64,000 nt of DNA from Amphiscolops sp. MND2022 (lineage: Eukaryota), in the NCBI GenBank assembly GCA_964187785.1, contig OZ076409.1, forward strand, positions 52,144,001 to 52,208,000, given 5' to 3'. The notes beneath the pieces were generated by a model. The model saw only the letters and a program-made list of their open reading frames with translations, searched no databases and had not been told where the DNA came from. Shown here one piece after another: positions 12,442 through 49,212 of the stretch. Position numbers and translations under genes: made by a program. Each line of letters opens with the position of its first letter. The stretch's first letter is position 1.

Positions 12442-13046
12442 ATGATAGACTAATTTGTATCATGTTGATAATTTCTTCCGGTAGGTAATATATTTTTCCG
12501 GCATGTTTGCTTGTTGTTGTCTCTCAAGGCAGACTAACGTTTTCAGGAGGTGGGGATCATTTGTAGTTAGAAGAAGAGATCAATTAACCTTCGGGATGTG
12601 GCAGTACAAATGACTTTCTATCATTGATTCCAGAACAAAAAAATACAATAGAATTGACACAGAAGGGGTGGGCGGAAGTAGGTCGAAGGAACGGGATCGA
12701 AAATCAGAGTTGGTCCTCAGATCGACATACCAAATTTTTGAATGGGATCGAAATAACTCGGATCGAAATTTTTGTAACGTAGTCAGATATGTTCACATAC
12801 CCCTAGTGCCCTAAATGCAGGAGCGAAGCGACGTGCCATATGGCCATGCCTCAATGTTGCTACTTGGCGAAGGGAGCGAAGCGACCGAGCCATACAACAA
12901 ATACAATAAAATTCGACCGCATTCCATTCGATCAATGCAATTCGATCAAAAGGTTCGACCTCTGTCCTTTCGACCAGAAAAATTCGACCTATTTACAGCC
13001 ACCCACACAGAAGGAAGGCAGGTGAGGATTGCAGGGTTATAAGAAT
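12442..13046 (-). mobile_element. Probable 3' UTR/tail of the LINE at 42733-47290, displaced ~30 kb by nested insertions
   Basis: The ATAAGAAT TSD joins 13046 to 42733, right at the stop of the last LINE ORF. Candidate tails on the minus strand: (ATC)3 at ~12438-12447 and CAA repeats at ~12505-12520. Confidence 0.5.
12666..13004. mobile_element. Mutator-type MITE, family 1, copy a
   Basis: Imperfect TIRs GGGTGG...TAGGTCGAA / TTCGACCTA...CCACCC, perfect 9-bp TSD ACACAGAAG (12657-12665, 13005-13013), subterminal TCGA-centred repeats. Confidence 0.88.
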
Positions 13047-13263
13047 GGTTACCAGTCACTTGGCTTAATACCATTCGGCCTAATTCTTTCGTCGAGTCAT
13101 TTGGCTTAAAAAATTAAAGCCAAGTGACCACAAAATTAAGCCAACTCCATTCCAACTGAAGGAATAAATATGTCAACTCCCGGAAATATCATAATGTGGG
13201 GCACAGGGTTGTCAGTTCAATTACGTTTTTTCTGAAAATAATTGATCAATTACAAATTTGCTA

Positions 13264-13978
13264 TGTAACGTCAAGCAAGTAACGCACATACCAGAACTGG
13301 GACAGTACTTAGGTTGCCTAGACAGGAGACCATAGTCCTATAACAAGCCTAAATACTAGTTTTTCATCCCTAAAGGTCTCCTAGGGACTTTTCCAAAACA
13401 CCGTGGAGATTCCTCTTATTAGAGCTCCGTGGCGACGCGCCGGCACACTCAAAGTCCGGACACGTCCCATAAGCGTGTAAAAACGTTCCTAAAGGCTTCC
13501 TGCGGCTCTACATACTTCCGAAGTCCGAAAACAGGGCTCTAGCTGAAATGCATTCTATTTCAGAAAATAAGGTCTAAATACTCCATCACAAGGATCTGGC
13601 AGATCCAACATCATCAAAAATCTGTAAATCAATACTAATGACATTAGAATCAATCAAGATTGGCATTTCTGGCATGTTTCTATCAAATTCGCGATTCTCT
13701 TCATCTCCTTTGCTGTGGGATATCTGAATCTCAGAACGTTTTTGCATTAAAAACGCACTTTTCTGGGGAGATGACACAAATCCGGCATTTTTCTTGTTCT
13801 TCCACATCGTGTCAGTGTCTTTTTTTCCTTTTTGGGTCGGGGTTGGGTTCGTCTGTCTTCTTTTTTGCTTCCTTTTTGGTTTCAACGACCTGCCAGGTCG
13901 GCCATTTTGACTCGCACACTTTTTGGTTCTTGATCGAATTTTTCATCGAAAATTTGGTGCTGACTGGTGGACGTTACA
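13264..13978 (-). repeat. Gypsy 3' LTR
   Basis: TG..CA ends with 9-bp terminal inverted repeat; about 10-11 differences from the 5' LTR by eye. Confidence 0.97.
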
Positions 13979-13986
13979 TCCTCCCC
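13979..13986 (-). promoter_or_regulatory. Polypurine tract
   Basis: GGGGAGGA on the minus strand directly abutting the 3' LTR. Confidence 0.8.
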
Positions 13987-14442
13987 GGGCCACTGTTTGT
14001 CGTCCTCGGCAAACGGAGAAGGATGCATCATTACTTACAAATGGTTTTAGCAACGTGGTTTTCAGTTTTTCTATTAGATCTTACTGCTTCAAAATTTCGA
14101 TTTAGCACTTTTTGATCATTCTGGGACAATAAAATTCAGTTTGTTTAAAAACTCTTACCATTCGTTCCAAGCTAGTTTAAAAGTTCTTTTAAGGGTGGTT
14201 GCACTTTTGCGACACTTAGCCAGAGAAACGGAGAACTTTTTACTAAAACTTTAATTGCACTTGTTTTGGCAGTTAGGTAGGCACCAAGCTGGGACCTACC
14301 CACCGGGTAGTTACATTAGCAAAATAACCAAAATGATGTTAATACTTTGTTAACTAAAATAGCACTTTTTGTTTTGACAACTACTGAGGCATAATATGTT
14401 CTTGGTTAGTTTTGGTTTGATTAGCCAAGTTCAGTACGTGTT

Positions 14443-17400
14443 TCATTCATCGCCAGTGTCATCCATAGTAGTATCGTCATTTTGTAGCACTTCATTTAAT
14501 GATAAGGCCAATACTTCCGATGGTGGCAGGTCTTGCTGATTCAAGCTAGGTAGTTCGTTCAACTCTAATTCGATATCAGCTGCTAGTGTTCTCGTCAATG
14601 ACGTGGGCGTGACTTCCAAAGCTTCTAGCGGCACTGTCTGATCATTTGAAGTAGCATTGGTGGTGATGACAGTGGTTGGGTTAGCTGTTTCAGGGTCATG
14701 GATGGATACATTGGTGTTGGTTGGTGTTGTAGCTGTTGCAATGCTGATTTGGCTTGAGGTTGACATCATGGAAGTTAAGGTATTTTCAGCAGTAGAAGCC
14801 TCCTCGTGCCCTGCTGCCTGTCTCATTGAGGTCGAGCCCGCTGGGCTTAGTTCTGGCAGCTGGTCTGCGAGGTCTTTGAAAGTTCCAATTGCATTTAAAT
14901 AACTGTCATATACGGTGTTTCCTTCGTCCCTCTGCTTGGCTATCAGACTCATGAAGATTTCCATGGCCATTTGTGGATTGTTCGGCATCTCTTCATTCAG
15001 GGGCAAGGTCTTTCTATTGGGTTCTTTTGCAATTTTCGGAACTGTCGCTTTCAGAGTTTGAAATCCTTGGTAGATCATTCTGTCCACTATCGGCGGGTCT
15101 GCCCAATGCGTAGTGTCGGACAAGATTTTGGCTGTATCGGCTTGCGGAGTCACTCGAGGGTTATACATTCGGGATACATCTTGTATTACTCGATGCTGGA
15201 GTCTTTCTGGTGTGGAGCCTTTTCTTCGTCCACCCAGGCGTCGTTCCGCTTTGGTTAGTACTCGGAGAATACCGGGCTCATCCCAGCTGGCAAAGCCTTG
15301 CAATGCTCCAGTGGTGGGTTCTAAAGGAGCGTGCAACCATTCTACTGGATGAAGTTCTAGCGACATAGGAACAGCGCACCGCGCTCTGGCTCGGATTAGG
15401 GCACTGAAGTTGTACTCGACCTGTTTCTTGTCTTTGATAATCGTGTATGCCATTGGTGGTCGGAAGTTGGCAAAGTTGCGCACTAGCATTTGAAAATCCG
15501 GTTGTCTGGTGTCGTCTTCAGGGTCCACAAAATGTAGAATGGATAATGTAGGTGCTTTTGCGGCAACTCTAAGCGGCTGTGTGGGGTATCTCAGGGCCAT
15601 CATTGAACCAAATATAGGCCAGACTATGGGTCCGATCATGGGGACTAGATCTTCAGTTTCTACTAACAAGAGGCTGGCTACTTGCGAGGGGAATAGGAAA
15701 CCTGGCAGGTTATTGCTGTTGGGTTTTTGATTTAGCGAGTCGTCTAAAGTGCTCATTACACCAGAGACATTGACCCAGGCTGAGTAAACCCAAGCCAATA
15801 GTGTTTCGATATTCTCGGCGAGCTGGGCGCGCAACTTCAAAGCGCCTGCAGGGTCCAAAGTGTTTAGAATGGCGTTAATCCAATTCCGCTGGTTCTTGGC
15901 GAATATGAGAAAACTGAGTAGACAGGAGTTGGCTTTAGCTAGGACTAATCTCTGCACCAAGTGCACTGGGCCTTTGTAGACGGCGCCTAGACCAACGGCC
16001 ATCAAGTATGCCAGGATTTCAGCGATTGTGGCCCTCTGCATTGCTTCTACGTACAGTCTAACTTGCTGCTCATCTAAGCTGCTTTCACGCTGTACCCAAA
16101 ATGGCGAGATGTTATACAAAAATATAGGGAAGGGATTTCCATGGCTTTCTGCTGTTTCATTCAAAGTCACCTGCAGCGTCTCGTGCCAAGATTGGTAAGT
16201 ATGCTGTGGGTTCATTCGGTTTTCTTGCGCTGTCTTTTGAGCTAATACTGTCAGCAATACTAGGGTGGGGGAAACCATGTTGGGCTTTGCGTCGATCGCT
16301 TGTATCGCCACTGGAAAAACAGTCGCGTCGGTCCGAGTTTGTTTTATTCCTTCTGTCTTCTTGAAGAGAGCTAGCAGCTCTTTGTGGAATTTAGCGTTGT
16401 GTGTTCTCTCATCTAGCGTTGACTCGTCTCTCCTTTCAAACCATCCGTTGTCAATCATGTTTGCCCGTTCCTTTTCTTTAGGTTCCTTAACTCGGCGTAC
16501 CCCATTTTCATCAAAGGTGCGATGCGCCATTTGCATGCCAAAGTCAAAGGCAGTAGCATCATCAGCCAGTAATTGAGAGTTTCCCTCGTATCCGGTACAA
16601 GCCTGCAAGGCTTTCGAGATTTCCGCCAGGAGTGCAGAATAAGAGTTTTCGCCCGGACGCCAGGTTGTGGCACTCACTCTCAGGTTCGGTGCTATTATGT
16701 AAAATGACAAATTCTGTGAGTAAGATGCTTCTGATACTAGATATAACAGTTGCTGGAGTGGTTTAGGTAAGTATACGTATCCTGGGGGCGACATAAAGAC
16801 TACCCCTACGACGGGATTCATTCGCTGCACCCGCCTGATCACATTTCTCATTGCTTCGACGTACGCAATTACCTCTCCTGTCATCACTTCTTCCGTCAGT
16901 CTACGGTTGCCTCCTTCAAAGTATTTCAGCGTTCCTCGAAGAGCCAAGTGGTCGATCATGTTGCTATATATTAGGATCGGAGGGAATGGAATTGTTTCTG
17001 TGTGGTTGACGGTGGGACCGAAGACCTTGCAGGTCACCTCTGCCATTTCCTCTAGCGATGTGCAGGGCAAGTTTATAACGCGAACATCCATCAGGGTGTT
17101 GTTCCTGTTCGCCGTTGCTTTCATCGTGGAGTCCATGAACAAGGCAATTCTTGTCTTTTGCAACATCTCTTTGCCCATGGGGAGTAAGGTTGTTATGTCC
17201 CTCATGAAATCACGGCTTTTCATCAGTTGGTCATCGTATCTTGCTGGTCGTTGTATGGCTAATTTTACTTTGGAGGGGAGTGATCTCATTAATGATGAGT
17301 TGTCTTTATGAAGATTCTCCTTTACTCTCTCGAACCAGGGAGGAATGCGGTCCAGAAGGAGTGTTGGCTTCTTTACGGGCCTTAAGTAATGCACTCCGAT

Positions 17401-17922
17401 CGTTGCTTTTTCTAGGTTTTGCACATCTTCTGGGCTTCCTTTGCTGGTAGCTGTTTCGAATTTCTGCACATCCAATCCTAAGTCTCGATTCTCTGATTTC
17501 GCTTCTCGCTGCAGACGCACCGCGTCTCTGGCAGCAATGTCAAGCTGTCGTGCCTCTGTCTGCGATAGGAGCTCTTTAGAGAATCGCACTCGCCTAGGCT
17601 CCGGCTGTTGCACTGGGGATGGATTCGGGCTAGAGTTCGTTGCATCCGAATTAGCTAAGTCTCTGGCCCTTTTCTTTTGAACTAGCTGTTCGATCTTACT
17701 TTGTTCCTTTCGATTCAGTACGTCGCGGAGATCGATAGGTGCCTTGGCTGCTTGTCTTTCTGCTAGTTCTTGCTGTTTCTGTTGTTCTTGGCGTTCTGGG
17801 TCGGCCTGAAAACCTATTAGGTGATGTGGGTCCTGCAACGTTGAGGGTAGCAAGGCATCGTAAGAGTCTTGAAATCCGATCATGTCTGTCATGATGGGCA
17901 CGTCGAGCGGGTTCCGCATCAT
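14443..17922 (-). CDS. Gypsy ORF3 main frame (1159 aa) with SGNH/GDSL-hydrolase-like domain; probably continuous with 17994-18758
   Basis: Intact long ORF between pol and the PPT. RIALFMDS / VINLPCTSLEEM / ILIYSNMIDHL / NPVVGVVFMSPPG resemble SGNH blocks. The frame stays open upstream into the G-run at ~18000. Confidence 0.8.
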   Translation of the reverse strand: MMRNPLDVPIMTDMIGFQDSYDALLPSTLQDPHHLIGFQADPERQEQQKQQELAERQAAKAPIDLRDVLNRKEQSKIEQLVQKKRARDLANSDATNSSPNPSPVQQPEPRRVRFSKELLSQTEARQLDIAARDAVRLQREAKSENRDLGLDVQKFETATSKGSPEDVQNLEKATIGVHYLRPVKKPTLLLDRIPPWFERVKENLHKDNSSLMRSLPSKVKLAIQRPARYDDQLMKSRDFMRDITTLLPMGKEMLQKTRIALFMDSTMKATANRNNTLMDVRVINLPCTSLEEMAEVTCKVFGPTVNHTETIPFPPILIYSNMIDHLALRGTLKYFEGGNRRLTEEVMTGEVIAYVEAMRNVIRRVQRMNPVVGVVFMSPPGYVYLPKPLQQLLYLVSEASYSQNLSFYIIAPNLRVSATTWRPGENSYSALLAEISKALQACTGYEGNSQLLADDATAFDFGMQMAHRTFDENGVRRVKEPKEKERANMIDNGWFERRDESTLDERTHNAKFHKELLALFKKTEGIKQTRTDATVFPVAIQAIDAKPNMVSPTLVLLTVLAQKTAQENRMNPQHTYQSWHETLQVTLNETAESHGNPFPIFLYNISPFWVQRESSLDEQQVRLYVEAMQRATIAEILAYLMAVGLGAVYKGPVHLVQRLVLAKANSCLLSFLIFAKNQRNWINAILNTLDPAGALKLRAQLAENIETLLAWVYSAWVNVSGVMSTLDDSLNQKPNSNNLPGFLFPSQVASLLLVETEDLVPMIGPIVWPIFGSMMALRYPTQPLRVAAKAPTLSILHFVDPEDDTRQPDFQMLVRNFANFRPPMAYTIIKDKKQVEYNFSALIRARARCAVPMSLELHPVEWLHAPLEPTTGALQGFASWDEPGILRVLTKAERRLGGRRKGSTPERLQHRVIQDVSRMYNPRVTPQADTAKILSDTTHWADPPIVDRMIYQGFQTLKATVPKIAKEPNRKTLPLNEEMPNNPQMAMEIFMSLIAKQRDEGNTVYDSYLNAIGTFKDLADQLPELSPAGSTSMRQAAGHEEASTAENTLTSMMSTSSQISIATATTPTNTNVSIHDPETANPTTVITTNATSNDQTVPLEALEVTPTSLTRTLAADIELELNELPSLNQQDLPPSEVLALSLNEVLQNDDTTMDDTGDE

Positions 17923-17993
17923 TATGGTTCTCGGTCTTTGGCTTGTATTTTGGGTGGCATCTTCATCGTTCTGCGCGCTCGTGTGCGCTTCTT

Positions 17994-18758
17994 CTACCCC
18001 CCTTCCCCCCTGAAAGAAGAAGGGAGCATGAGTTTGTTGTTCTCTTCCAGGCGCCTGACACTAATTGGGGCGGATGATGGTGGGAGCGTCAATATTGGCG
18101 GAGGCACTGTTGGCAAAAGGCATGTGAATTGTTGTGTGGGCGATGGTTGCGTAGATTGACAGTCGCGGGCGATCTCAGGGGCAGTTATCGACGATATTGC
18201 AGGTGCTTGCGTCAGGTTCGTTTGAAGACGTCGTTGCTGTTCCATGGGAGGTCTATTAGGCTCGCCATATCTCAGGTGCGATCTGTGGTCATCAAAATGG
18301 TGGGTGAGATCGTGTCCTTGCCACGCGCCATTGTGGAATTCCGCAGTTCTGCGGTAAGATCCAATTTTAATTGATATGGAGAGGGTGAAGTCCGGATGTA
18401 TCTCGAGAGATTGCATTTGAGCAATTAGTATGGCCATCCCGGTCACCAGTGATGGAGAAGGGGTTTCTTGTAGGGTCGATTGGACCAGACCAAGCTGGTC
18501 AATTCTGGTTTGAGATTCTTCGACAGGCAGCGAGGACATGGGAGCTTCTTGCGTGGCAATTGTCGGCGGTTGTGATTGGTCCATTCTGCTGGTGCTCAGT
18601 TGCGAGCTTGTTGTTGATGGAGCTGGCATGCGGGTTTTAGCCGATTGATCCAATAAAGAGATAGGTAGCGCCTTGGATGAATGACTATGGTGGATGTACT
18701 GCAGATGTGATGATATATAACTGGCTGCGTCAAGTGCATGGGAATTGACAGGACTGAA
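17994..18758 (-). CDS. N-terminal part of ORF3 (Ser/Thr/Pro/Gln-rich), separated from the main frame by a -1 shift in a G-run
   Basis: Frame open from the AG acceptor (18760-18759) to TAG at 17994; first in-frame ATG at 18629; shift at GGGGGGAAGGGGGG. Confidence 0.6.
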   Translation of the reverse strand, partial: FSPVNSHALDAASYISSHLQYIHHSHSSKALPISLLDQSAKTRMPAPSTTSSQLSTSRMDQSQPPTIATQEAPMSSLPVEESQTRIDQLGLVQSTLQETPSPSLVTGMAILIAQMQSLEIHPDFTLSISIKIGSYRRTAEFHNGAWQGHDLTHHFDDHRSHLRYGEPNRPPMEQQRRLQTNLTQAPAISSITAPEIARDCQSTQPSPTQQFTCLLPTVPPPILTLPPSSAPISVRRLEENNKLMLPSSFRGEGG

Positions 18759-18959
18759 CTAGAAAAAAGAAAACGACAGACGTCATTTTGAGCTAAAATA
18801 TTATTGCTGATGAGTGTAATTGATATGATAAACATTAAAAGACAATAAGATAAAACAGATTCGACAATTCACGTTAAAACCTAGTTCAGGGATTACTCAA
18901 ACAGCACATATGCTAAGAACAGGACGAGTGGCCTCCCTTATTTTTTGTACCACAGTAAT

Positions 18960-20010
18960 TCAGTCAAATTTGTATTTTACATGGTTCTGATGTGTCCTCA
19001 CTAACGCAATTGATACATACACCCTATCGTGGAGGACTATGTCGATATTGGAATCAATGAAATGATCTTTCAACATTGAATACCAAGCTGGTAGCATGTT
19101 GATTGATCTTTCAGGGTCATAGATGGGAAAGTGGATATGGGTGATTTGTGCTCGTGTGAGCTTCTGCACCAGGTCTATTAGGCACAGATGTAGCACATCA
19201 TGTAAAATGGGGTGTTTACTAGAGGCTCTGGTGATTAATAGGAACATCTCGTTATTCCACGGCGTTGCGGGTGATGTAGTGAGGTGATAGCCTTTCCTAC
19301 GGCTGGGCGTAGTCTGAAAATTTCCTCCTGACCATATTCCCTAATGACGTAGCGCGCCATTGCTGAATATGATAGAAGGTCTGCCGGACAGCATATTACT
19401 ACGGCACCCTTGGCTTGCAAGATGTCAGTTTCTTCGTAATGAATCCATGATAGATAGTTCGGTTTGATCTTCGGATGCGTTATCAATAGCTTTCCCGTGA
19501 TTGTGCTTTGATTGTCTTGACTTGGCGTGAGATGATCCAAAATGGCCTTACGGTCTTGCCACACTGTTCTGCGTAAAGGTCTGTCTCCCAAGTTGGTGCA
19601 AGACCAATCGTGAACTACGGAGAGTGCTTCCAGCATGGTCACTGGGTTCTCGAATGTATACGTGTGTTTGTCTAACAGGCGTATTTTGGCTTGGCGACAG
19701 AAGACGATAGCTAGTAGTTGTAACCAATGTTGACTGAGGAATCTCCCACGATAAATATCTGCTAGATGGAAGCATAAGGTGTCCTCGAACTCTACGAGCG
19801 TACGCAAATTTTCCAAGCAAATCAGTAAAGTTTCTGGAGTCACTAGTGCGTTTCGTCCAAAGAGGTGACCAATAGCCACCAACCAGCCGTTGGGTGATAC
19901 ACGTCTCCAGGAGGGGAGGTTAGGCCATATTGCTGCCATAGTCTTCGCGCGGTGATACAGCGGACCATTGCTATTCGTGTGTCACTTGGTTCTATTTTTT
20001 CAAACATCAT
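18960..20010 (-). pseudogene. Pol C-terminal tandem macrodomains (TARG1/Poa1p-like), broken by two single-base frameshifts (~19845, ~19285)
   Basis: Domain 2: IHYEETDILQAKGAVVICCPAD...MARYVIREYG...RPAVGKAI / MFLLITR...LHLCLIDL...ITHIHFP...MLKDHFIDSNIDIVLH. Domain 1: AMVRCITA...PGDVY...WWLLVT / TPETLLICLENLR...LCFH...WLQLLAIVF...IRLL. Confidence 0.7.
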
Positions 20011-23000
20011 CGATGGTGGGAGTGGGGGTATGATTGCGGTCAACGTGAATTCTAATCCACTCTTTTCATGCCGCGTCCATTCCTTAAAACGGTAGGTGGG
20101 GCCATCTAATGGAGATGTTTCTTGCATGGCTTTTAGTGTGGTTTCCAGGGGTGGGACCACGGCTGGTCCAATGCTCGAATAGGTCTTTTCCACGGTAATC
20201 ACAACGTGATGTACTTGTGGAACCTCTTGGTCCTTAGCTTGTATGTTTCGAATGTATTGCATGTGATCTTCCGTTGTTTCAGTAACAACTGTGTCTGGGG
20301 CAGGAGCGTCTACTCCCCGGGCCAATCGCTTGTTCGGTGGTTTCACACTAATTAGGTTGACGCAACTACAGTTACGGGAACCACATGTTCCGCAGCGATA
20401 TCTAGGAGTTCTATTGCGTCGCAGCAAATAGGGTGGTGCTCGTGAGGTTGTTGTTTGTTCCGCTTCTGATTGCTCTGATGATAAACTTTCTGCAATGTTG
20501 GGTAGCGTCATTGCACGTTCCACGGTTTGAGATTGTGCTCTAGTTCGCAATCTGCCTCTCGATCTGGTGTACGGTCGGTGCGTGCTTGCAAGTGCTCTGC
20601 TTGATGAGTTGGCACTTCCTCTTCTACGATTTGGAGGTCTGCCTCTTGGCCTGCCTCTTCTACTCGCGGTTCTCCCCGATGATGGCGATGCTTCCATGCT
20701 GTGTCTGGGTTCTGGAATTTCTCTGTCAGTTCTTTCTTGGGGTTCGGGTCCCTCCTCGATAGTTTGTAGTCCTGCCGAGCTACCAGCTCGGGAATTGAAT
20801 AGTGGGAAATTGCTCAATGTGTCGGTTAAAGCTGGGTTCGAGAGCAATGGTGCTGATGTTCCTGATAGCGAGGGTATCAGACTTGGTGTTGGTTCTGGCC
20901 TGACTTCCTCTTGGTCTGAATACAGTGGTTCCAAATCATCGATATAAGGGTAGATCATTGGTTGTTGTGGCTCTTCAATGGGTTGATCCATTTGTTCTTG
21001 GTCGGATTCCGACTCAGAAGGGTATCCAAAATGACTGAATCGTCTTCGAGGGATTCCTCGTTCTAGAGCAGACTGAGTACGTGTTTGAATCGTGCTCGGG
21101 GGAACGGGCGCGGTCGGTTCCATCTCGAATGATGCCTCTGGCAGTTGTTCTGGAAGAAATGAGTCACGCGATATGTCTGACGTTATCTCCTCATTACTTT
21201 CCTCCACGTATGGGTCTGCGATGATGGCAACATTCTGGTCTAACACAAAGGGTTGATGTGCCGCCCAATCCCACGGCGCAGGCACATGCTTCTTCAGGCG
21301 TTCGAAGTGGACCTTTTGTCCTGTATCCAAAACGTATAATCTTCCATCTTGTAATACATCTGTGACCTTGTGAGGTCCACGCCAGGCACGAAGGAGTTTG
21401 CGGGTGCCACCTTTAGGAATTATGTGGCAGAAAACCCAAACAGCATCACCCACCGCGTGAGCTTTTGCTTTCAAATGCTTGTCGAACTTCTGTTTTTGTC
21501 GTATTTGCGCCTGGTGTGTGTTTCGGCGATCAAGTTCGTGGATTTCTTGTTGTCGAGCAAGTAGGTGCTCCACAAATTCTTCTTTGGACTCAAACTCTCG
21601 CGCTGCAAATTCTGGGTATATAAACGAGAGTGGAATGGATTTTTCTGCGCCATGTTGGAGCATATAGGGGGAAAATCCGGTCGTTGCATGCCTGGTAGAA
21701 TTATAGGCACCCAAGACTCCGTCTATGTGTTCATCCCAGTCAAGCACTCTTCGAGACGTATAGACTCGGAGCAAGGTCAGTAATGTTCGGTTTTGACGTT
21801 CCACTAAACCATTACCTCTCGGATGAGCTGGAGTAGACGTTATTTTGGTTACTTGCGAAGCTTTCATCAGTTCTTGAGCAATCTCAGCAGTAAAGTTGGT
21901 GGCATTGTCCGATTGCATCCTGGCAGGTGTGCCGTGTCTTGCAAACCATTTGTTCAGGATAATCTTTGCAGTCGTCTGGGCGTCATATTCGTCGTGTGCA
22001 CATGGGATTGCCTCTGCAAATTTAGTGAAATGGTCGATGATGGCTAGCAATCCATTATTCCCTGACGTTGTTTTGCATAACTTCAAATGGTCGAACTGCA
22101 CCAGGTCATTGAAATTGCTGCTGTTGATACTTTGTAACGGATAACAGGGGTTCCCAGCGGGATGTTTCGTCTGTTGGCATGTTAGGCAGTGCTTAATATG
22201 ATTGACAACATCACGCTTGATGTCTGGCCAAGTGTGGCGCTCTTGGATTCTTGTCAACACTTTACCAACGCCTTGGTGTCCTGATTCGTCATGCGCTCTG
22301 TACAGGATTTCGTGTTGGTATAGCTGGGGCATGACGATCATACACGGTCGTATGTGCATCGCGCGTTGCCGCGGGATGTAGTTGACACACAAGATATCGT
22401 TTTGATTCAGGAACAGTAAGTCTTTTTTCTGGTGAAAGTACCGTTTGGCAAAGTCTTGCACGTCTTCGGGAAACAACGTATCCTCAAGTGGCCCGTTCTT
22501 CATGAGTTTCTTCAGCGCTAGCAGATGTACATCTCTGTTTTGAGCTAGATGAAGATCTTTCAATCCGCGCATTGTTGACTGATGCTCGTGAAGCTCAGTC
22601 CCGACTAGCCGGAGGACGTCAGCTTGTTCCTGACACGGCGTAGGCAATCTACGCAGTGCTGGGTCACGTTGGATGGTGTCCAGACGTGCCGCCGGCACTT
22701 TGGTCATTACGCTAAGGATACAATTCGGTCTGTCGTCTTCGGTTGAAGTCGGAGTTGTTTCCCATTGCACCTGTGGGTACCATGGTATGGAATTCAGGGA
22801 CGGGTCTGATGTCAGATCTTCCTTTGGTGGCTTCTTCAAAATGTACAGTACTGGAAGTTGTGCTTTAGCTTCCAGTGGAAGCTCTGGATGGTTTGGGATA
22901 AATTTTCCATGTTTGTCGATATAGGGCACAGTGGGGAGTTCTTCGTAGTCTTTCTGGGGCATGAAGCTGAATCCCTTACTCACTTCTGGTAGAGTTTCCA

Positions 23001-26000
23001 CAATCTTCTCCCGATGTACGTAGTCATTGGTCCTTTTGCTAAGACCATCCACATTTCTATGTTGTGTGCGCGGTCTGTGGATCGTCTTGAAATGATATTG
23101 GTCGAGGCGCGCAATCCAGCGTCCAATCATGGCTTGATCCATTGAATATGTCTTCAGCCATGAGAGAGCCTGGTTATCCACGCGCAGCGTGAATTCTCTA
23201 CCTGCAAGGTAGGAATGAAATTTCTCGATAAAATAGAATACTGCATACATTTCCAGCTTCGGGGCGCCATATTTCATTTGTGTTTTAGTCAGTGACTTAC
23301 TGCCATAAACAATAGGACGAAGAATGGTTTTCCCATTGTATTGTTGTTCTTGGTGCAGTATGCCGGCTATAGCAACTGCACTGGCATCTGTGTCTAGAAC
23401 GAAACGTCCTTCTTCGTTGGGCGCTGCCAAAGCTGTGGCATCGACCAATGCCTGCTTTACTGCATCAAACGCTTCTTGGTGTCTTTCTTTCCAGTAGAAG
23501 TGTTGGTTCTTTTTTAACAACTCCTGCATAGGTTGCACCTTAGCAGCATGAAAAGGAATGAAATCTCGGTAGTAGTTCGCAAAACCAAGGAAGCTCTGTA
23601 ATTCTTCTCTGTTTCTGGGGGGCATCCATTCCTGGATTTTGCTGACAGCAGCCGGGTCAGTCTTTATGACTTCGGCCGAAACTACTCTTCCAAGGTATTT
23701 GGTTTCAGTGCGCATGAAGTCGCATTTCTCTGCTCGCATCTTGAAACCTGCCTCTCTGAGACACTCGAACACTTCTCTAATTCTTTCCAAGTGGTCTTCG
23801 ATGGTTTCTGTCGCAATCACTATGTCATCTATGTATGCCATGACCACGCTTCCATGTCGTTGTTGGATCTTCTGTAGAGCTCTCGTGATTGATCGCTGAA
23901 AGGTGGCCGATGCATTGCATAGCCCGAAGGGCATGCGCCGCTATTCGAACAGGCCAAGTTCACACGCGAACGCCGTTTTTCTGCGATCACGCTTCTTCAG
24001 TGGAATTTGCCAAAAAGCCCACGCCAAATCTATGCTCGTGAAGATCTTTGCATTCCCAATCCTCGAGAGGCTTTCATCGATTCTGGGTAGTGGAAATGCG
24101 TCCTTCACTGTTACATCATTTAGCGGGCGGAAGTCACAGCAAAAGCGAAGCTCGCCTGATTTCTTTTTCACCATGACTATGCCACTGGCCCACGGAGAGA
24201 AGGAGGGTTGTATCAGACCAAGGGCCAGCAAATTTTGCACTTCCTGATTGGCTTTCGCCGCCTTATCAGGGGACATTCGCCTAGCTCCTTCTCGGTGAGG
24301 TATAGCCTCCGGCTCTAGCTCTATCTTGTGCTTTGCAATCTTACACCTACCTATGTCAGACTTATTTTTCATGAATAGGTCTTCGTACTCATTTAATATA
24401 GTTTCTAACTTGTTTCTCGCCTCTTCCCCCCATGAAGAAAGGACGGAAGAGAGGTCGGGGCCTGGGATTGCTTTTAACAGCTGTGGATCTGTCCTTTTGC
24501 GCTTTTCATTATCTGATAAACCTGCCTCAGACGGTTCGGTCGACGATAAAAAGTTTTGGGCAAAGGAACTGAATTCTGAACTGGTGTCCATATCAAAGTT
24601 TCTATGTATTTGATTTACATACTCGGCAGAAAGCGTCGAAGCTTCACCTTCAGTTTGCATAAGAACAGAGTTCAATACAAAAGTGGTAAGCGCCGCTTTG
24701 CCAATTACAGTTTGTGCTTTGATTTTCACCCGTTCTTTATCAGTTTGGTTTCGGATGGCTAAAAATACTATACCTCCTTCTCCCACAGAAGTTAGTGTAT
24801 CTTCTGAAACAAAGACTGAAGTGGACTTTATGCTACATGAGTGGACCGTTACGTTTCGAAACAGAAAAGTGTCAGGTTGTTGCGTGATGATTTTCGCACG
24901 CACTATCTTCCTTTCGAATGGACCTAGTATTATGTCTTCAGTGGAAACTACAAACGATGGTTCGTGGTCGCTTACCTCATGAGTGGCTTTAAAGATTCGA
25001 GGTGTTTTGGGATCGCGGATCGTCACTTTCATTGCTGTTAGGTCCACCAACACGTTGTATGTGCGCAAGAAATTGCGACCCAGGAGGAAATCCTCTGACC
25101 CAATATGATCGGCTATAACTACAAAGTTGGTCTTCAGAGTGTATCCGCCGAGCTGAAAGTTTACATCTTCGGCTATACCCACGGTGGTGATGTTTTTACC
25201 ATTGGCAGCGAAGAGTTCAACGTCATATGGTGATAGGCTCAGCTTATGCTGGGAGGCAATATTTTTATACGCACTCAATGAAAGGATGGAAACTCCCGAA
25301 CCGGTGTCAATCATGCCGAAAAGTGGTATCGGCTTTTGCAGAGGAGTTCCGAATGCTACTACTAGCGAGGCTCGCTCATCAATCTGGGCCTCCCCTTGTG
25401 CATCTTGCACTCCAATGCTATAACAACGCAGTTCTTGCCTGCCCAGATATAGGCCTTGCGGAAAGTGTCCTTCCAGGACAACAATCGCATCAAACCTCAT
25501 GTCCACACCATCAACCGTGATCGCAACGGGAACTGGCGCGATTGTCTTCACCCTCTGTATCTGGGCCAGCTTGGTCTCATCATTCCTTGTGAAGTGGGGT
25601 AGTGGTCGCGAAGCTATCGTCAAACTGGTATTGCGGCACAGTTCTTCTTTCAGTTGTGGTAATGTGAGACTTGGACGCGCCTTTTGTTCTGCGGATAACA
25701 ACAGATGGATGGATATTAGTGTTTCAGTACAGTCAGGCGCTGGTGCCTCAAGTGTCGTCAAGATTTGTTTCTCGCCACAAGTTACAACCACAGGGCGTGA
25801 CGGGCCTCCGTCTCCCGAAGTCGAGATTACCCTTATTTGATCCTCTGAATCGCAAAAGTCTGTTGAGTTTGCGACCGGGGCGTACCACGCCGCTTTTACT
25901 TGTTCTTCCGTTGCAACATTGTGAGGCGTCTTACAATCAGATGCCACGTGGCCTACATGACCACAATTAACACAGAATGCTGATGTTCCTTGTTCTGGTA

Positions 26001-26040
26001 GGGTTGCGGGCATTAAGTCATCATTCATGCCGCGTGGGTT
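19843..26040 (-). pseudogene. pol: Gypsy pol (second zinc knuckle, PR, dUTPase-like, RT, RNase H, integrase); in-frame TAG at 23941-23943 where Trp is expected
   Basis: CVNCGHVGHVASDC; IDTGSG; SPWASGIVMV.KK..LRFCCDFRPLN; FE*RRMPFGL; YIDD; LDTDAS; HDESGH..CLTC; FDHL..SDNA..VERQNRTL; WRGPHKV. Confidence 0.96.
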
Positions 26041-28578
26041 CTACGGGCACACCCATTCTCCAGCTGTGTTCGTGCGACACGAATTAACTATTTGCTGTAC
26101 TGGTTTCCATGCTCGGTCTTTCAAAGGACAATCGGCTGCAAAGTGTGAAGGATCTCCACAATTGAAACATGTTCGCTGCGGTTGTTGTCGGAAAGCTGGA
26201 GGCTGTTGTGGGAATTGCTGGGCGTTAGGCGCTTGAGGGGCTTGTGCCTGTGCTTGGTTTTGCGGGTTCGCTGCGACAGGCGGCTGTTGTTGTTGTTGTG
26301 GTGCAGGATAATTTTCCGAACGTGTCGAACCACGCATACGCAGGTATTGTTGTACCGTGAATCGTAAGGCCTCCACAGTTGGGGGTGTGTCCACATACTG
26401 TTCCTGTGCATACATGAGTGCAAGGTTTCGTTTCAACTCATAGCTTCGTACCCCTTCGATGAACTTCTGCATAATTTCATAGCGCCTCACCGCAACTTCC
26501 TCGTTGGGAAAACCTTGGCTGCGCAAACCTTCCAATGCGTCAAGATATTGCATGTAGTCTTCATCCGGGGACTGATTACGTGTACGGAACTGTTGTTGTA
26601 TTTGGATCTTAATAGATCCTGTTCCAAATCTTCGTGCTAGCAGCGCGAAGACTTTTTCATCAGTATCGCGTTCCGCTTCTGATTTATTCGTAATATAGTC
26701 TCGTGCTTCATTTTCTAGAAATTCCACAATTGTCCATGCTTTGTCTAAAGGAGTGTCTTTTGCATGGGCTTTTTCTAGGTAACGCCTCATCAGCATTAGC
26801 CAGCCATCCACTATTCCATCGCGTGTGCCACGATACTTGGTAGGCTTGTTCTTGGATTCTTTGGCTGCCAATAATGGCTCCAGAGCTTTGGACATCGCGG
26901 TGGTTATTGCTTCCGCCAACGCTTGGCTGTGTATAGCATTCGGAGCGTTGTCCTTGTCCTTGGCAGCTCCCTCCACCGTTCCAGTGTTCAGGTTCCTTCT
27001 CGAGATTGTCTTCCTTTGCGTGCTAGAGGCCAATGACCGTAATTGATCGTTATTATGGGGTAACATTGAGCGCTTTGTGCCAAGCATTGACGAAACAGCA
27101 GTTTGATATTCGGTACTTCCTGATGCTGTTTTCATATTACTATGCATTTGGTCGCTGGCCGCCGAGTAATAATCTCCAGTCGTTGAGGCACCTCTAGCAT
27201 ATGGGTCGAATGAAGGGGGGCCTGATATGTCACAGCGCTCTACTTCAGTTTGAGTGGTTGTTGACAGTTGGGTTTTCATCGGCACCTGCTTGTACGCTGC
27301 GGGTGGTTGCAACTTTGGCTGTTTTGTCTGATCCGGTTTCGTCACACATTGGCGTTTGGCAACTTCTCGGTAGGAGGGGTGTTGACTAGGAGACGCACTC
27401 GTAGATGGTATGTCGGCAGAGTTTGGTGCCATCGGCACGGGTGTGGGACGGTTTGGTATCGCCGCCACTACGGTCTTCACCCCTAGGGTTAAATCTTGAA
27501 CCGTAGTCATGAGGTCCACCATGCGTTTGTCGACATCTAAATCTCTGTGGTGCATCATTTCGGACATGTGTTTTAGGCGCTCATCCGCTTGTCGATCTCT
27601 TTGCACCATTATTGCCGTCATCTCCGATATACGTTTTTCCGTTAGGTCCTTGACTGATGCTACGGACGTTTCTATCTTGCCCTGGTTGACTCGTCCTTCC
27701 ATCTTGATCTCACTCACCTCCTTTCGTAACTCTTCTACTTCCATTACCAAAATTTCTGTCCGACGGACATGGTCAGTGTTTTCCTGGGCTAACTTTACTT
27801 GGACTCGTTTCAATTGTTCCATACTACGTCCAAAATCTTCTCGTATGGCTTCTGTTTCTTTGATACCTCTGGCGATCGTCGAATTTGGGGATGCTGCACT
27901 GCCGGCATCGGAGTGTTGGAGCGTTGCCGTGCGTTCCAGTCGTAAGGTGCTGGGACCCAGCAATGGTGGTGTAGTGGAGGCATAGTTCTGGAGAGCCACT
28001 CCTTTTCTGGTCTTCCGCTTTCCCGGCTGACTTTCCGAAGGAGCAATCGCAGTGTCACCTAATGTATTGCTATTGCTATCAAACACTGGTACTCCGGAAC
28101 CCAGCGGGTCCGCTTTCGTGCCCAGGTGAGGGGTGATTTCTCCCAAAGTCATGCCCACATTCATATTTTCAACCCACTTACTGATATCCGAGCTAGTAGC
28201 TACCTCTCTATTCGAGTTCGGCCAGTCCCCGGTAATAATCACGGAAGTGTTCAGAGGAGGCCATACGTTGGTATGGTTCATGGTAGTCTCATTAGCTAGT
28301 TCGGTGCTATCAAAGGACATCTTGGAGGAATTTGCTTGTCTCGTACGCGCAATTTGCGAATTTTGCTCAATGTTAGACACGTTATCTGACATTACGTCGT
28401 CTAAAAACAGGTCGGCGATCATATCTAGCGGTGCTATTTCAGCTTGTGTACTCAGGGTATGCAACTCTTCTATGTTGTTCGCGAACGGGTTGGTAGCATG
28501 AAATTCGTTAGACTCCACTGATGTCTCACTCATGAATAATAAATATTCCCACTGACTCAAACTCATTTTTACTTGCAC
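26041..28578 (-). CDS. gag: Gypsy Gag with long N-terminal/coiled-coil extension and CCHC knuckle (first ATG 28566)
   Basis: KPTKYRG..VDGWL, QFRTRNQSPDEDYMQYLDALEGL, KFIEGVR, CFNCGDPSHFAADC; ends in a TAG in frame with pol. Confidence 0.93.
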   Translation of the reverse strand: MQVKMSLSQWEYLLFMSETSVESNEFHATNPFANNIEELHTLSTQAEIAPLDMIADLFLDDVMSDNVSNIEQNSQIARTRQANSSKMSFDSTELANETTMNHTNVWPPLNTSVIITGDWPNSNREVATSSDISKWVENMNVGMTLGEITPHLGTKADPLGSGVPVFDSNSNTLGDTAIAPSESQPGKRKTRKGVALQNYASTTPPLLGPSTLRLERTATLQHSDAGSAASPNSTIARGIKETEAIREDFGRSMEQLKRVQVKLAQENTDHVRRTEILVMEVEELRKEVSEIKMEGRVNQGKIETSVASVKDLTEKRISEMTAIMVQRDRQADERLKHMSEMMHHRDLDVDKRMVDLMTTVQDLTLGVKTVVAAIPNRPTPVPMAPNSADIPSTSASPSQHPSYREVAKRQCVTKPDQTKQPKLQPPAAYKQVPMKTQLSTTTQTEVERCDISGPPSFDPYARGASTTGDYYSAASDQMHSNMKTASGSTEYQTAVSSMLGTKRSMLPHNNDQLRSLASSTQRKTISRRNLNTGTVEGAAKDKDNAPNAIHSQALAEAITTAMSKALEPLLAAKESKNKPTKYRGTRDGIVDGWLMLMRRYLEKAHAKDTPLDKAWTIVEFLENEARDYITNKSEAERDTDEKVFALLARRFGTGSIKIQIQQQFRTRNQSPDEDYMQYLDALEGLRSQGFPNEEVAVRRYEIMQKFIEGVRSYELKRNLALMYAQEQYVDTPPTVEALRFTVQQYLRMRGSTRSENYPAPQQQQQPPVAANPQNQAQAQAPQAPNAQQFPQQPPAFRQQPQRTCFNCGDPSHFAADCPLKDRAWKPVQQIVNSCRTNTAGEWVCP

Positions 28579-31345
28579 AGTTTTTGCATCTCAATTAAAT
28601 TAGATTTTCTTTCGTCTTTCACTCACTCCTTCCCTTCAACAAATTGAATTAAAGGCAACTCAAAAATGGAAGTTTTGATCTCTTTCTCCGATATTCTAAC
28701 TAAATTGTCGTGCTATTAAGTTCTAGAGTTTGTAGCTCGTGATCGCCCTCTTGATTCTATTTCGAGATCAGCTGACTGTCATAAACTTCACACTCCTAAT
28801 TACATGCACTAACTCAAGATTACATGCACTGGTGTTAGTCACCACTAATCAAAACAGAAAGGTTTATATCCCCACTAACTGTAGATAATTATTCTACACA
28901 AATTCAAAGTTAAGCTTTTTAAGTTTTTTTTACAGTTACTCACACTAAACTATGCTTTATCCAGCCACAGGCTATGTGGTCGGGATAACTAAAAGGTTTT
29001 GGCGCGCTATCAGAACTTTGCAGAGATTTATTCAAGAAATCACCGCGCTTTTCTTCTGGGAGCGCACACTATGTCACTCATACTGACTTTCAATAGTAGA
29101 GCACCTGGGGTATTGCTACAACAAGGGATGTCGGGAACTAGACCTTGGGGGTGAGTAGGTGTTAGGATACTTCCAAACAAGAGAGTTATCGTAATCTGAT
29201 CGTAACATGATCAATGGAAACGCAGTTCTTTACAATTTCGAATGCTACTATACTCAATTTTCTGTCTCGAGACGCACCGCGTCCACTATCCACGTCTTCT
29301 AGAGAACTCTTATTTGCGTTTTAGCTCTCTCGCGTCACTTCTCAGTCGAGGCAAGCGTGAAAGCACCTGTCAGTTCGCACTTAGGTGACCCTGGTGGCCG
29401 TTGGGAGAGGAAATACAATTTTTGCGTTTTGCACTCCTATGTCTCGTAGACAGCTTTTTGACAAACCCAAGATTTTAGGGTTGAGCTAGCTCCATTCTGA
29501 TTACTTCAATGGGACGAGCTATGGATGCCTGGTGTAGAATTAGGGTCGTTTAAACCTTCGCTCTCAACTACACCTACGAAAAGTGTACAATTTTTCGCAA
29601 AATTTCTCAAAATCGGCAATTCTTTCGCCAAAGTGCACGCCTGGAGAAGGTGAAGATCACTTCTAGAGCTACTAGCGACCTGAACATTTGACACAGTATA
29701 TTACTGTGACCAAATCGTGAGAAAATTACCGCCGATTGCGCCAAAATTGATTATACGTGATTTGAGGTTGCTTCAGAATGTTGTTTGAAGAATCGACTAT
29801 GTTGTGAAATTTACAAAAGTCTGTCAAACTCGCCTTCTAGGCTTTCTAGCAACCTGAAATTTTGTATGCGAGCGTGAATTATACCCACGTAACAGAAAAA
29901 CAAAATAGCGAGGTGCCCAAGTCAATATTCCGCAATCCGAGTTGACAAAACTATGATGTACCCTATTAGTCACTTCCTTGGGCCAAAATTCACAAAAATG
30001 TCAATTTCTCCAAATTGGACAGTAGCAAGCTGCTCAAAATGCACAAATTGTCGGGATCTAGTGCTGTTTGTACGAAAATGCAAGAATTTTAGTGCTGGGA
30101 TACTACGAAGGTATTGCACTGTGCTCAACTAAAATTCGATTTTTTTGACAGTTTCGTACAATTTTTGAGCAAAACTGCGGCTAAGATTTCTCAATCACCA
30201 GTAGTGCAGTAGTGGTAGCGCTACGAAAATTACACCACTAACGTAACTTTTTACGGTCTACACGATGGTGCAATCCGTTTTGAGCTACTCCTAGTAGGAG
30301 AGATTTCGACCTATCTTGGGGACACTACTCCAGTGTTCCGAAAATGTCGCAAAAACAACGCGTTTTCGGCTATTTCTCAGCAACTACTGGTTGGAATCAC
30401 TCGCGGTTTTCTGCGTTTGCAACGTTATACCCTATACTAACGGAAAATAGGCAAGCGAAACCTGGCAGGTTCCAAATAAGGTCTCTCAAAATAACTTTCA
30501 AGTTGCACCTTTGACACTCTGGGAACAATGTGAAAAATACGTATTTTCCCTAGGAACTTTTTATTTCTCGGTTCCCAGATGTTCGGGATAGTTCTAAACT
30601 TAAAGTTTTCTCTATAAAAACCGCTAATTTTCTCAATGTTTCAACAATTTAGCCCAGCAAATTTTTCTGTTCCTGACCTAGCAGGTCTGATGAAACGTTT
30701 TTTTCGTATTCCCACTGGCCGTATCCTTTTCCACTAGATTTCAACTTTCAACACCTCAAAAATCGGTATTTGAGCTATATATGGTGTTATTTTCGAGGTT
30801 TTCGCGCTCAAACTTTTAATCAACTGGTCTAAACACCCACAGGGTATTTTCCCCAGTTAATTTTAGTGGGAACAGGCCTGGGAATATGCTTTTTGGGCCG
30901 ATTATTAGCAAGAATTAGCAATATAACCCGATTGATGTGGGTATACGGCAACTACAGGGGTGCTGGAGGTGTGATGTCGTAGGTGCTCACACACTGTCGT
31001 CAGCTGATTGGGGCCTTCAGCACTCGTCCTCCCGGTCCCCATACATTGCTAATTTACTGAAACGGAGCTACAAAACCCTTTATAACTAGTTCCGGATAGG
31101 CCGGATTAACATTTTCAACAGGTATTATCAAAATACAAGGGGTGCACTGTCTGAAATCGTCGATTTTGGGTTTCAGACCTCGGAAATACGCAGGGCACGC
31201 AGGAAAAACACTAGTACAAGGCCCACAGGGCTAGAATAAGGCATTAAAAACAATCTACGACTCTCCAAGAAGTTTTCCTAGATCCAGACCTAGCAGGGCC
31301 GGAAAGCAGGAAAAACTCCAATTATGGCGAAAAGATGGAAAAAAC

Positions 31346-31363
31346 GTCCCTTGTGGGGCGCCA
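31346..31363 (-). promoter_or_regulatory. Primer binding site, tRNA-Lys-like
   Basis: TGGCGCCCCACAAGGGAC versus canonical Lys(UUU) PBS TGGCGCCCGAACAGGGAC; 16 nt from the LTR edge. Confidence 0.7.
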
Positions 31364-31379
31364 TAAAAACTACTCTAGA

Positions 31380-32095
31380 TGTAACGTCAAGCAAGTAACG
31401 CACATACCAGAACTGGGACAGTACTTACGTTGCCTAGACAGGAGACCATAGTCCTATAACAAGCCTAAATACTAGTTTTTCATCCCTAAAGGTCTCCTAG
31501 GGACTTTTCCAAAACACCGTGGAGATTCCTCTTATTAGAGCTCCGTGGCGACGCGCCGGCACACTCAAAGTCCGGACACGTCCCATAAGCGTGTAAAAAC
31601 GTTCCTAAAGGCTTCCTGCGGCTCTACATACTTCCGAGGTCCGAAAACAGGGCTCTAGCTGAAATGCATTCTATTTCAGAAAATAACGTCTAAACACTCC
31701 ATCACAAGGATCTGGCAGATCCAACATCATCAAAAATCTGTAAATCAAAACTAATGACATTACAATCAATCAAGATTGGCATTTCTGGCATGTTTCTATC
31801 AAATTCGCGATTCTCTTCATCTCCTTTGCTGTGGGATATCTGAATCTCAGAACGTTTTTGCATTAAAAACGCACTTTTCTGGGGAGATGACAACAATCCG
31901 AGCATTTTTCTTGTTCTTCCACATCGTGTCAGTGTCTTTTCTTCCTTTTTGGGTCGGGGTTGGGTTCGTCTGTCTTCTTTTCTGCTTCCTTTTTGGTTTC
32001 AACGACCTGCCAGGTCGGCCATTTTGACTCGCACACTTTTTGGTTCTTGATCGAATTTTTCATCGAAAATTTGGTGCTGACTGGTGGACGTTACA
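31380..32095 (-). repeat. Gypsy 5' LTR
   Basis: Direct repeat of 13264-13978. Confidence 0.97.
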
Positions 32096-32384
32096 CTAAT
32101 TGGAATTGGAATGGATTTTTTTCAGGGAATTGGAATTGGAATTGAAACGTTTAATTTCAATTGGAATTGAAATGTTTTGAGTAATTGGAATTGAAATTCA
32201 TAAAAATAATTACCGAGAAAGCCTTTTAAGGACAATAAAACAACATCAAGTAATAAGGTTGAATTAATTGCCAATAACCGTAACCGTCAACATGAACAAA
32301 AAAGTATCAATAATGCTTGAATTAAAGTCATTCATCAAAAATGCATAGTTTTTGTTTAGGAAAACATTTCTTTGGTGATGATGG

Positions 32385-39060: not shown

Positions 39061-39599
39061 CATTCTAAAATAACTTTGACATTAGTCAATATGTCAATTA
39101 GTCAATAACAAAATAACAAGCGTTTTGGATTTTGATATAAATTTTGAGAGCATGCTACAATTAAGAAATGAGTTGCAATTTATTAACTTAATTTCGAACT
39201 TTAATATTGCGAAAAATCTCTGAAATTTGGTTGGAATTGGAATTGGAATTGAAATTGAAAATTTTGCCGCATAATTGGAATTGGAATTGGTTTTATTTTT
39301 TGTAATTGGAATTGGAATTGAAAATCTCGAAAAAGCGTAATTGGAATTGAAAACGCTTAATTGGAATTGGAATTGATAATTGGAATTGGAATTGACAACC
39401 CTGGTGGGGCATATGCGGTGTATGCACGCTCGCCCTCACTGTCGCAAAGACCAGCTCCCACTACGATCACTTCGCGATCTTCGTCCTCGCTAGGTCTTTG
39501 CTCCTGTTCGACCTCGCTTAGCAAGATGGGAATATAAGCGGCCCCAAGGGGCCGCAGGGCACTAGAGGAAATGGGAAAATATCCGAGGGGGAATATGGG

Positions 39600-41594: not shown

Positions 41595-41928
41595 ATATGG
41601 GACAGTTTGCCGAAACCCATTTTGCCCAATCGGCAAAGTGTCCCTACCTTGCCCATTTTGCCGAATTTTTTTTCGGCAGAGTGGGCATCGAAATTCGGCA
41701 AAGTTGGCAAGGCAGTTGTCTACATCTGCGAAAACAGACTTTTTGAGAGCGAAAATATAATTTGGGGCATATCCGATGTATGCACGCTCGCCCTCACCGT
41801 CGCAAAGACCAGCTCCCACTAGGATCGCTTCGCGATCTCCGTTCCCGCTAGGATCGCTTCGCGATCTCCGTTCCCGCTAGGTCTTTGCTCCTGTTCGACC
41901 TCGCTTAGCAAGATGGGAACATAAGCGG

Positions 41929-42276
41929 GGGTGGGCGGAAGTAGGTCGAAGGAACGGGATCGAAAATCAGAGTTAGTCCTCAGGTCGACATACCAAATTT
42001 TTGAATGGGTTCGAAACAACTCGGATCAAAATTTTTATAACGTAGTCAGATCTGTTCACATACCCCTAGTGCCCTGAATGCAGGAGCGAAGCGAAGCGGA
42101 GCGACGTGCCATATGGCCATGCCTCAATGTTGCCACTTTGCGAAGGGAGCGAAGCGACCGAGCATTACAACAATACGATAAAATTCGACCGCATTCCATT
42201 CGATCCCTGCAATTCGATCAAATGGTTCGACCTCTGTCCTTTCGACCAGAACAATTCGACCTATTTACAGCCACCC
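41929..42276. mobile_element. Mutator-type MITE, family 1, copy b
   Basis: Homologous to 12666-13004; perfect 9-bp TSD CATAAGCGG (41920-41928, 42277-42285); empty site visible at 39533-39541. Confidence 0.9.
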
Positions 42277-49036: not shown

Positions 49037-49212
49037 GCCTCAATGTTGCTACTTGGCGAAGGGAGCGAAGGGTCATACAACAAAAATGCTAACCTCTTCA
49101 AATATATCAGTTAATTGATCAATTTGATCAACCCATTTGGTCGACACTTTGTCGCCCTTGTGACCGACGCCATATTGTCGCCCAAATGGCTGGTGACGAA
49201 ATGTCCCTGACC

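Follow-up and report, generated by a model that had tools for sequence, protein, structure and literature searches.

The subject of this study is a giant Ty3/Gypsy retrotransposon on the minus strand of a 64,000-nucleotide stretch of Amphiscolops sp. MND2022 DNA (assembly GCA_964187785.1, contig OZ076409.1, positions 52,144,001 to 52,208,000; "the window", whose numbering is used throughout). An initial annotation, made from the letters of the window, described an 18.8-kb element with unusual additional domains and suggested that it may define an undescribed virus-like lineage. Its two long terminal repeats (LTRs) are identical in 706 of 716 aligned positions (98.6%, with one 1-nt indel), close to the 98.5% estimated by eye, and the leader, given as 2.8 kb, measures 2,789 nt from the LTR end to the start of the long frame. 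The layout, in the direction of the element, is as follows:

32096..32098, minus strand: 5' copy of the 3-bp target-site duplication, TAG on the element strand
31380..32095, minus strand: 5' LTR, TG..CA, 716 nt (LTR alignment)
31364..31379, minus strand: 16-nt spacer from LTR end to primer-binding site (PBS); forms a hairpin with U5 only in families A-D (below)
31346..31363, minus strand: PBS, exact 18-nt complement of the 3' end plus CCA of host tRNA-Lys(TTT)
28591..31345, minus strand: non-coding leader
18960..28590, minus strand: Gag-Pol, single frame of ~3,210 codons, interrupted in the window copy
14443..18758, minus strand: third open reading frame (ORF3), ~1,440 codons, one frameshift in the window copy
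13979..13990, minus strand: polypurine tract
13264..13978, minus strand: 3' LTR, TG..CA, 715 nt (LTR alignment)
13261..13263, minus strand: 3' copy of the 3-bp target-site duplication

The Gag-Pol frame, predicted at about 3200 codons after repairs, is broken by two in-frame stops (26041-26043 and 23941-23943) and two frameshifts (near 19.87 and 19.30 kb), as had been proposed. A separate ORF3, put at about 1400 codons, is likewise present, but its own frameshift near 18.00 kb had been overlooked. Genome searches list many intact Gag-Pol frames of 3,180-3,310 codons in two sister families and intact ORF3 frames of 1,400-1,450 codons in sister copies; because these frames are naturally open, the stops and frameshifts are specific to the window copy. 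About 285 nt of leader are missing from this copy at 30596/30597 and present in three sister copies, so that the usual element is ~19.1 kb long. What the window contains is best explained as one copy, inserted recently and dead by now, of a very abundant retrotransposon family of ~19 kb.

A clade of abundant families

Searches with ORF3 and the Pol C-terminus recovered seven families, A (that of the window), B, B2, C, D, E and F. Identity to the ORF3 of A is 72-76% in B and B2, 46-47% in C and D, and 28-30% in E and F. All families share a common layout of ~18.7-19.4 kb, with LTRs of ~710-735 bp and an internal region of ~17.4 kb; one copy each of A and E is ~17.5 kb long. In B, D, E and F, several LTR pairs show no difference over the aligned stretch (100% identity), and their insertion is therefore recent. 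A pattern composed of LTR end, gap and primer site has 3,429 exact matches genome-wide, its reversed control none. At ~19 kb each, these junctions would come to as much as ~65 Mb of the 1.07-Gb genome; since many copies will be partial, this is an upper bound. The clade could occupy up to about 6% of the genome.

Synonymous divergence (dS) between loci of families B and B2 (L031 and L033) is 0.11 in the reverse transcriptase, 0.25 in RNase H and 0.6-2.3 elsewhere, and the low values suggest recombination between families. A dispersed repeat of ~350 bp, present in the window at 12666-13009 and 41929-42276, also lies inside the 3' LTR of a family A copy (L018:8752-9101).

In the C-terminal region, identity to public proteins of 2,500-3,100 residues is 86-90%. 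Two divergent ORF3 homologs, P0228 and P0223, reach only 27-33% and 28-29% identity in this genome, and because of these low values they probably derive from other genomes, although only the best candidates are scored in such a search. One of 14 metagenome loci with a reverse transcriptase match (L120) is 60% identical over the N-terminus of that enzyme and has the same order of capsid, two knuckles, protease repeat, protease and dUTPase-like segment. It groups with A-F at 100/99 support in a tree of which it fills only 28% of the columns and whose other rows are all unnamed or unclassified. The elements form a clade of at least seven families with relatives in other genomes. A further ORF3 fragment (P0173), on an 816-nt contig labelled as a bacterial metagenome-assembled genome, is probably host DNA in the bin.

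Target-site duplication and displaced primer site

The most unusual features of the clade, both overlooked by the initial annotation, are its 3-bp target-site duplication and its displaced PBS. Among the window copy and 30 fetched LTR pairs, 27 could be scored, of which 25 have a 3-bp duplication, none a 4-bp duplication, one a 5-bp match and one no duplication. All 11 scored pairs out of 12 from families E and F likewise have 3 bp, which brings the count to 36 of 38 scored copies (43 examined). Mismatched flanks, taken as a control, agree over 3 bp in 3.3% of 702 pairs. An unrelated Gypsy copy (with an LTR pair in only one of the three loci fetched) and another LTR element in the window both show 5-bp duplications, as read by eye from their flanks. 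According to the available parts of a recent paper, 3-bp duplications are confined to Troyka, and other LTR elements have 4-6 bp (Kojima 2025, PMC12440569); the clade therefore departs from the duplication length typical of Ty3/Gypsy elements, a feature that lies outside the ICTV profile. The window copy was inserted at the edge of an AATTGG-rich repeat, of which there are stretches at 32097-32198 and 39233-39397.

In most LTR elements, the gap between LTR and PBS is 0-3 nt. In every copy that was fetched and scored, the PBS of the clade lies 14-16 nt past the terminal CA, and of the LTR-PBS junctions genome-wide 3,429 have a gap of 13-18 nt versus a single one with 0-8 nt; in the control Gypsy (L109 family), by contrast, the PBS abuts the LTR. 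In A, B and B2 the PBS of the clade is exactly complementary to host tRNA-Lys(TTT); that of C-F matches tRNA-Arg(TCG). Pairing of the spacer with U5 into a hairpin is significant in A (z -2.85), B (z -2.41) and D (z -3.16). Both primer tRNAs occur in large tandem arrays; a pattern for tRNA-Lys(TTT) that allows one mismatch matches 914 times, and that for tRNA-Arg(TCG) 256 times (G000:C7:5.22-5.24 Mb, C1504:0.28-0.30 Mb and C9:57.54-57.58 Mb; L044, L068).

The first ~2 kb of the leader are conserved between families far above synonymous sites. A non-coding block of ~900 nt (~29.6-30.6 kb), 79-92% identical between A and D, matches nothing in E or F by BLAST and nothing in Rfam, and is a candidate packaging or regulatory RNA.

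The element most likely follows a Ty3-like intracellular cycle, in which a single polyprotein would be made and reverse transcription primed by tRNA at the displaced site. The resulting cDNA would carry a 14-16-bp extension at its U5 end. Since integrated 3' LTRs end at CA, this long extension would, under the standard scheme of reverse transcription, have to be removed; the integrase probably trims it back to CA and joins the ends with a 3-bp stagger. Such a footprint would have evolved independently of that of Troyka.

Core and accessory domains

The following parts of Gag-Pol and ORF3 were recognised:

26347..26847, minus strand: capsid-like region (PNMA E 0.0013 in family A, 0.00016 in family F, both under the Pfam cut-off)
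25930..26178, minus strand: two CX2CX4HX4C zinc knuckles (Pfam, alignment)
25399..25833, minus strand: protease-like repeat without DTG; an invariant Glu stands in the corresponding position (by eye), and homology to the true protease is weak
24991..25398, minus strand: aspartyl protease, DTGS ... LLGRNF (Pfam, alignment)
24682..24990, minus strand: dUTPase-like relic without recognisable catalytic motifs (weak)
23080..24345, minus strand: reverse transcriptase (YIDD) and contiguous RNase H; best solved relative Ty3
21286..22341, minus strand: integrase (HHCC, D-D35-E, W-R-G-P-H)
20100..20403, minus strand: linker with a conserved CxxCxxxxCxC motif, matched in 6 of 7 family representatives
19664..20025, minus strand: macro-like domain 1, strongly degenerate (moderate support)
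19020..19462, minus strand: macrodomain 2, TARG1/DarG class; apparent catalytic Lys replaced by Arg, GCG loop by YDPER
18759..18780, minus strand: candidate splice acceptor, pyrimidine tract and AG just before ORF3
16582..17157, minus strand: SGNH-fold domain; block I Asp-Ser apparently retained, block V His replaced by Arg
15238..16437, minus strand: conserved all-helical region of ORF3

Pfam recognises two zf-CCHC, one aspartyl protease, RVT_1, RT_RNaseH, Integrase_H2C2 and rve; the accessory parts have no Pfam match. Gag-Pol is one frame without frameshift or readthrough, and its enzymes follow the order protease (PR), reverse transcriptase (RT), RNase H (RH) and integrase (IN). Among solved structures the RT-RH part is closest to Ty3, in a contiguous match of 425 residues (260 bits) without a tether domain. 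The integrase has W-R-G-P-H in 7/7 families, the GPH of which we take to be a variant of GPF/Y. Together with the two LTRs, the 18-nt tRNA PBS and the polypurine tract, these characters identify the element and its families as a Ty3/Gypsy (Metaviridae) clade, as had been recognised from motifs.

The accessory regions are present in all seven families examined, which supports their fixation in the lineage over one-off captures. Between families A and B, the ratio of nonsynonymous to synonymous substitution (dN/dS), a check proposed by the initial annotation, is a non-neutral 0.03-0.13 in the pseudo-protease, the dUTPase-like segment, both macrodomains and the SGNH and helical parts of ORF3, measured per whole domain, with selection at single sites beyond its reach. 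All accessory parts are thus under purifying selection.

The individual modules differ in how clearly they can be recognised. The predicted doubling of the protease is clear for the DTG copy and weakly supported for the upstream repeat: this repeat shares the dN/dS of 0.03 of the DTG copy and keeps its Glu invariant across seven families, but it resembles the protease profile weakly (E 0.0012, probability 19%, C-terminal 40 columns only), and a PDB search with it found no protease. The proposed dUTPase-like segment does retrieve dUTPases, which make up 13 of 16 PDB rows and are closely related to one another, but at weak E values (0.11-0.59), with the motif residues unmatched in the alignment shown. 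Of the two proposed macrodomains, the second has a TARG1/DarG-type fold backed by predicted structure, whereas the degenerate first one is weakly to moderately supported.

An alignment of macrodomain 2 to the canonical macrodomain of L109 places Arg at the position of Lys in 8/8 rows and (Y/H/I/L)DPER at that of GCGLD. The Lys and Asp of L109 presumably correspond to Lys84 and Asp125 of TARG1. Roles of catalytic Lys and Asp residues in TARG1-type macrodomains are described in the available parts of PMC9411070; judged by sequence register, both are replaced in Gag-Pol.

ORF3 contains an SGNH-like domain, as annotated, whose fold is backed by predicted structure and which covers ~200 of its ~1,440 residues. 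With a block register taken from the block table in PMC10792757 rather than from coordinates, block I retains Asp in 17/17 and Ser in 16/17 rows, block V (canonically Asp-x-x-His) reads Arg-Pro in place of His-Pro in 23/24, block II has its Gly in 2/22, and block III reads N-x-x-D-H in place of Gly-x-Asn-Asp (Asn 22/22, His 19/23). In this register the His and Asp of the catalytic triad appear replaced, while the Ser of block I is retained. A similar domain without serine is the OSK domain of Oskar; ORF3 keeps the serine, and the comparison is a functional analogy only, with no relationship shown. The pyrimidine tract and AG ahead of ORF3 are found in all seven families, and ORF3 is probably translated from a spliced RNA.

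The suggestion of a virus-like element is not supported in the sense of an envelope: the folded N-terminal domain of ORF3 is SGNH and not a fusion protein, and all families share only one moderately hydrophobic, proline-rich segment. The 50 viral-library rows listed for a model of the ORF3 core include no fusion protein, and all stayed short of E 0.001. Env-like features were not seen, with residues 1-488, the helical part and the tail not folded or searched alone and no signal-peptide predictor applied.

We interpret the macrodomains, the SGNH domain, the dUTPase-like segment and the protease repeat as probable binding, scaffolding or regulatory modules that would no longer act as the ancestral enzymes. 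The macro pair most likely tethers the integrase to chromatin or nucleic acid, and ORF3 most likely handles or localises the long RNA or the particle. Counter-defence or membrane functions, as initially proposed, are possible but have no direct support because the catalytic residues of the macro and SGNH domains are replaced and no Env-like features were seen.

Two other groups of sequences lie in the window. A second LTR-type family with ~900-bp LTRs (32385-38514 and 53777-59964, with a 5-bp duplication in the latter copy; related 5.68-kb repeat units at 43357-54226) has one ORF of 1,192 codons without Pfam match and is probably non-autonomous. ORFs of 238-302 codons at 39905-41643, 4741-5457 and 44834-45553 likewise have no Pfam matches.

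Affinities and alternative interpretations

The clade resembles Ty3 in the order LTR-PBS-gag-pol-polypurine tract-LTR, PR-RT-RH-IN, YIDD, the tetherless RT-RH, the CX2CX4HX4C knuckle and TG..CA ends (definition in PMC7879559). It differs in its 17.4-kb internal region, the 3-bp instead of 4-6-bp duplication, the PBS 14-16 nt from the LTR, the protease repeat, the tandem degenerate macrodomains and the ORF3 of 1,400-1,500 codons. Internal regions above 15 kb are permitted by the ICTV profile of Metaviridae (PMC7879559).

With Troyka (Kuafuorterviruses), the clade shares the 3-bp duplication, the single Gag-Pol frame and the domain order, according to the accessible text of PMC12440569 and PMC11673190. 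The same excerpts give for Troyka CG..CG ends, LTRs of 100-400 bp, an internal part of up to 7.7 kb, a CX2CX8-10HX4C knuckle, IADD/VADD/LADD in RT and no GPF/Y motif, as opposed to TG..CA, ~710-735 bp, ~17.4 kb, CX2CX4HX4C, YIDD and W-R-G-P-H in the clade. Membership in Troyka was rejected, since termini, sizes, knuckle, RT and integrase motifs all differ.

Each type of accessory module has a separate precedent. Bdelloid Vesta and Juno have a dUTPase between PR and RT and a GDSL/SGNH ORF3, with SGNH catalytic residues reported intact where block V of the clade appears lost; the word "macro" does not occur in the available text (PMC5408684). Planarian Burro likewise has a giant multidomain polyprotein, several zinc knuckles, a dUTPase-like segment and thousands of copies, but exceeds 30 kb and carries BIR, BCL2, MATH, ankyrin and Env-like parts, none of which Pfam finds in the clade; "macro" and "SGNH" are absent from the accessible part of the review (PMC6431247). 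Macro ORFs occur in fish endogenous retroviruses, as stated in the portion available of PMC4977317. An unrelated Gypsy of this genome (L109-L112; G000:C12:44.81-44.83 Mb), only 24% identical to the clade over RT-RH, has a TARG1-type macrodomain C-terminal to its integrase, but this is a single canonical domain with Lys and GCGLD, in an element with a 5-bp duplication and an abutting PBS; its LTR end appears to be GA.

Literature searches found neither this combination of accessory domains nor a 3-bp duplication in a TG..CA Gypsy, though Repbase, Dfam, GyDB or supplements could hold them, and the accessible part of a preprint on chromatin evolution (10.1101/2021.11.30.470311) contained nothing relevant. 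The proposed giant lineage is thus borne out as a clade of at least seven families, while its being undescribed holds for the literature searched. It is possible, if not what we would expect, that the clade is already catalogued, for instance with a species-specific Gypsy name in Repbase or Dfam, perhaps including a note of its 3-bp duplication. Its great abundance and the identical or near-identical proteins in public ENA assemblies would favour this; no informative name is found among the homologs listed, however, and the 2025 paper by a Repbase curator gives, in the text available, 4-6 bp for all but Troyka (PMC12440569).

We regard it as rather unlikely that the accessory domains work as active enzymes by an altered chemistry, in which the Ser and block III His of ORF3 would cooperate, and the Glu of the protease repeat would either serve a pepsin-like, two-lobed protease or the repeat keep the protease inactive until assembly. 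The conservation of the ORF3 Ser, Asn and His, the invariant Glu, a dN/dS equal to that of the true protease and a similar repeat ahead of the protease in the outside contig L120 are in line with this possibility, as is the existence of a TARG1-class enzyme without Lys84/Asp125, SCO6735 (available parts of PMC9411070). The weak profile similarity of the repeat and the lack of a protease in its PDB search argue against it. Least likely of all is an infectious virus-like element whose macrodomains would erase host ADP-ribosylation defence and whose SGNH protein would act on membranes for cell-to-cell spread: its fold classes are correct, ORF3 takes the env position behind a candidate splice acceptor, a hydrophobic segment is common to all seven families and rotifer GDSL ORF3s have been discussed in this light (accessible parts of PMC5408684 and PMC6431247), yet the catalytic residues are replaced, no fusion protein was listed and purifying selection is steady at the level of whole domains.

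We therefore favour a giant, intracellular Ty3/Gypsy clade, recently and massively active, with U5-end trimming, a 3-bp stagger and non-enzymatic accessory modules, and consider this interpretation probable. Several points weigh against it. The L021/L022 copy has a 5-bp match and another copy no duplication, the latter probably internal to a tandem, since a polypurine tract precedes its 5' LTR; the choice of copies by paired LTRs or long frames biases the sample to young ones. The spacer-U5 hairpin is not significant in E or F, and a conserved splice donor was looked for and not found. Macro-like domain 1, the protease repeat and the dUTPase-like segment score weakly (E 0.001-0.6), the catalytic positions were placed by sequence register and not by model coordinates, and the near-invariant Ser with the block III Asn and His may reflect an altered SGNH catalysis. 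The cDNA processing, the splicing and all accessory roles are steps that we infer. More tentatively, and with clearly less confidence, we suggest an undescribed multi-species clade in which trimming of 14-16 nt and a 3-bp stagger would be a new integration geometry convergent on Troyka, the tandem protease would be pepsin-like and two-lobed, and macro and SGNH pseudo-enzyme modules would read ADP-ribosylated chromatin and RNA.

Default settings of LTRharvest require a duplication of at least 4 bp and an LTR distance of at most 15 kb (PMC2253517), and therefore exclude elements of the clade on both counts. If the more tentative reading above is true, the clade may be hidden in many animal genomes, given such filters of LTR finders. 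The hold of the integrase on its target DNA is reflected in the length of the duplication. At present 3 bp serves as a hallmark of Troyka; a Gypsy with TG..CA ends and 3 bp allows the determinants of the stagger to be compared in an independent, natural case. From the displaced primer site one would expect an unusual cDNA end, which is directly testable, and the clade presents enzyme folds that stay under strong selection after the apparent loss of their catalytic residues.

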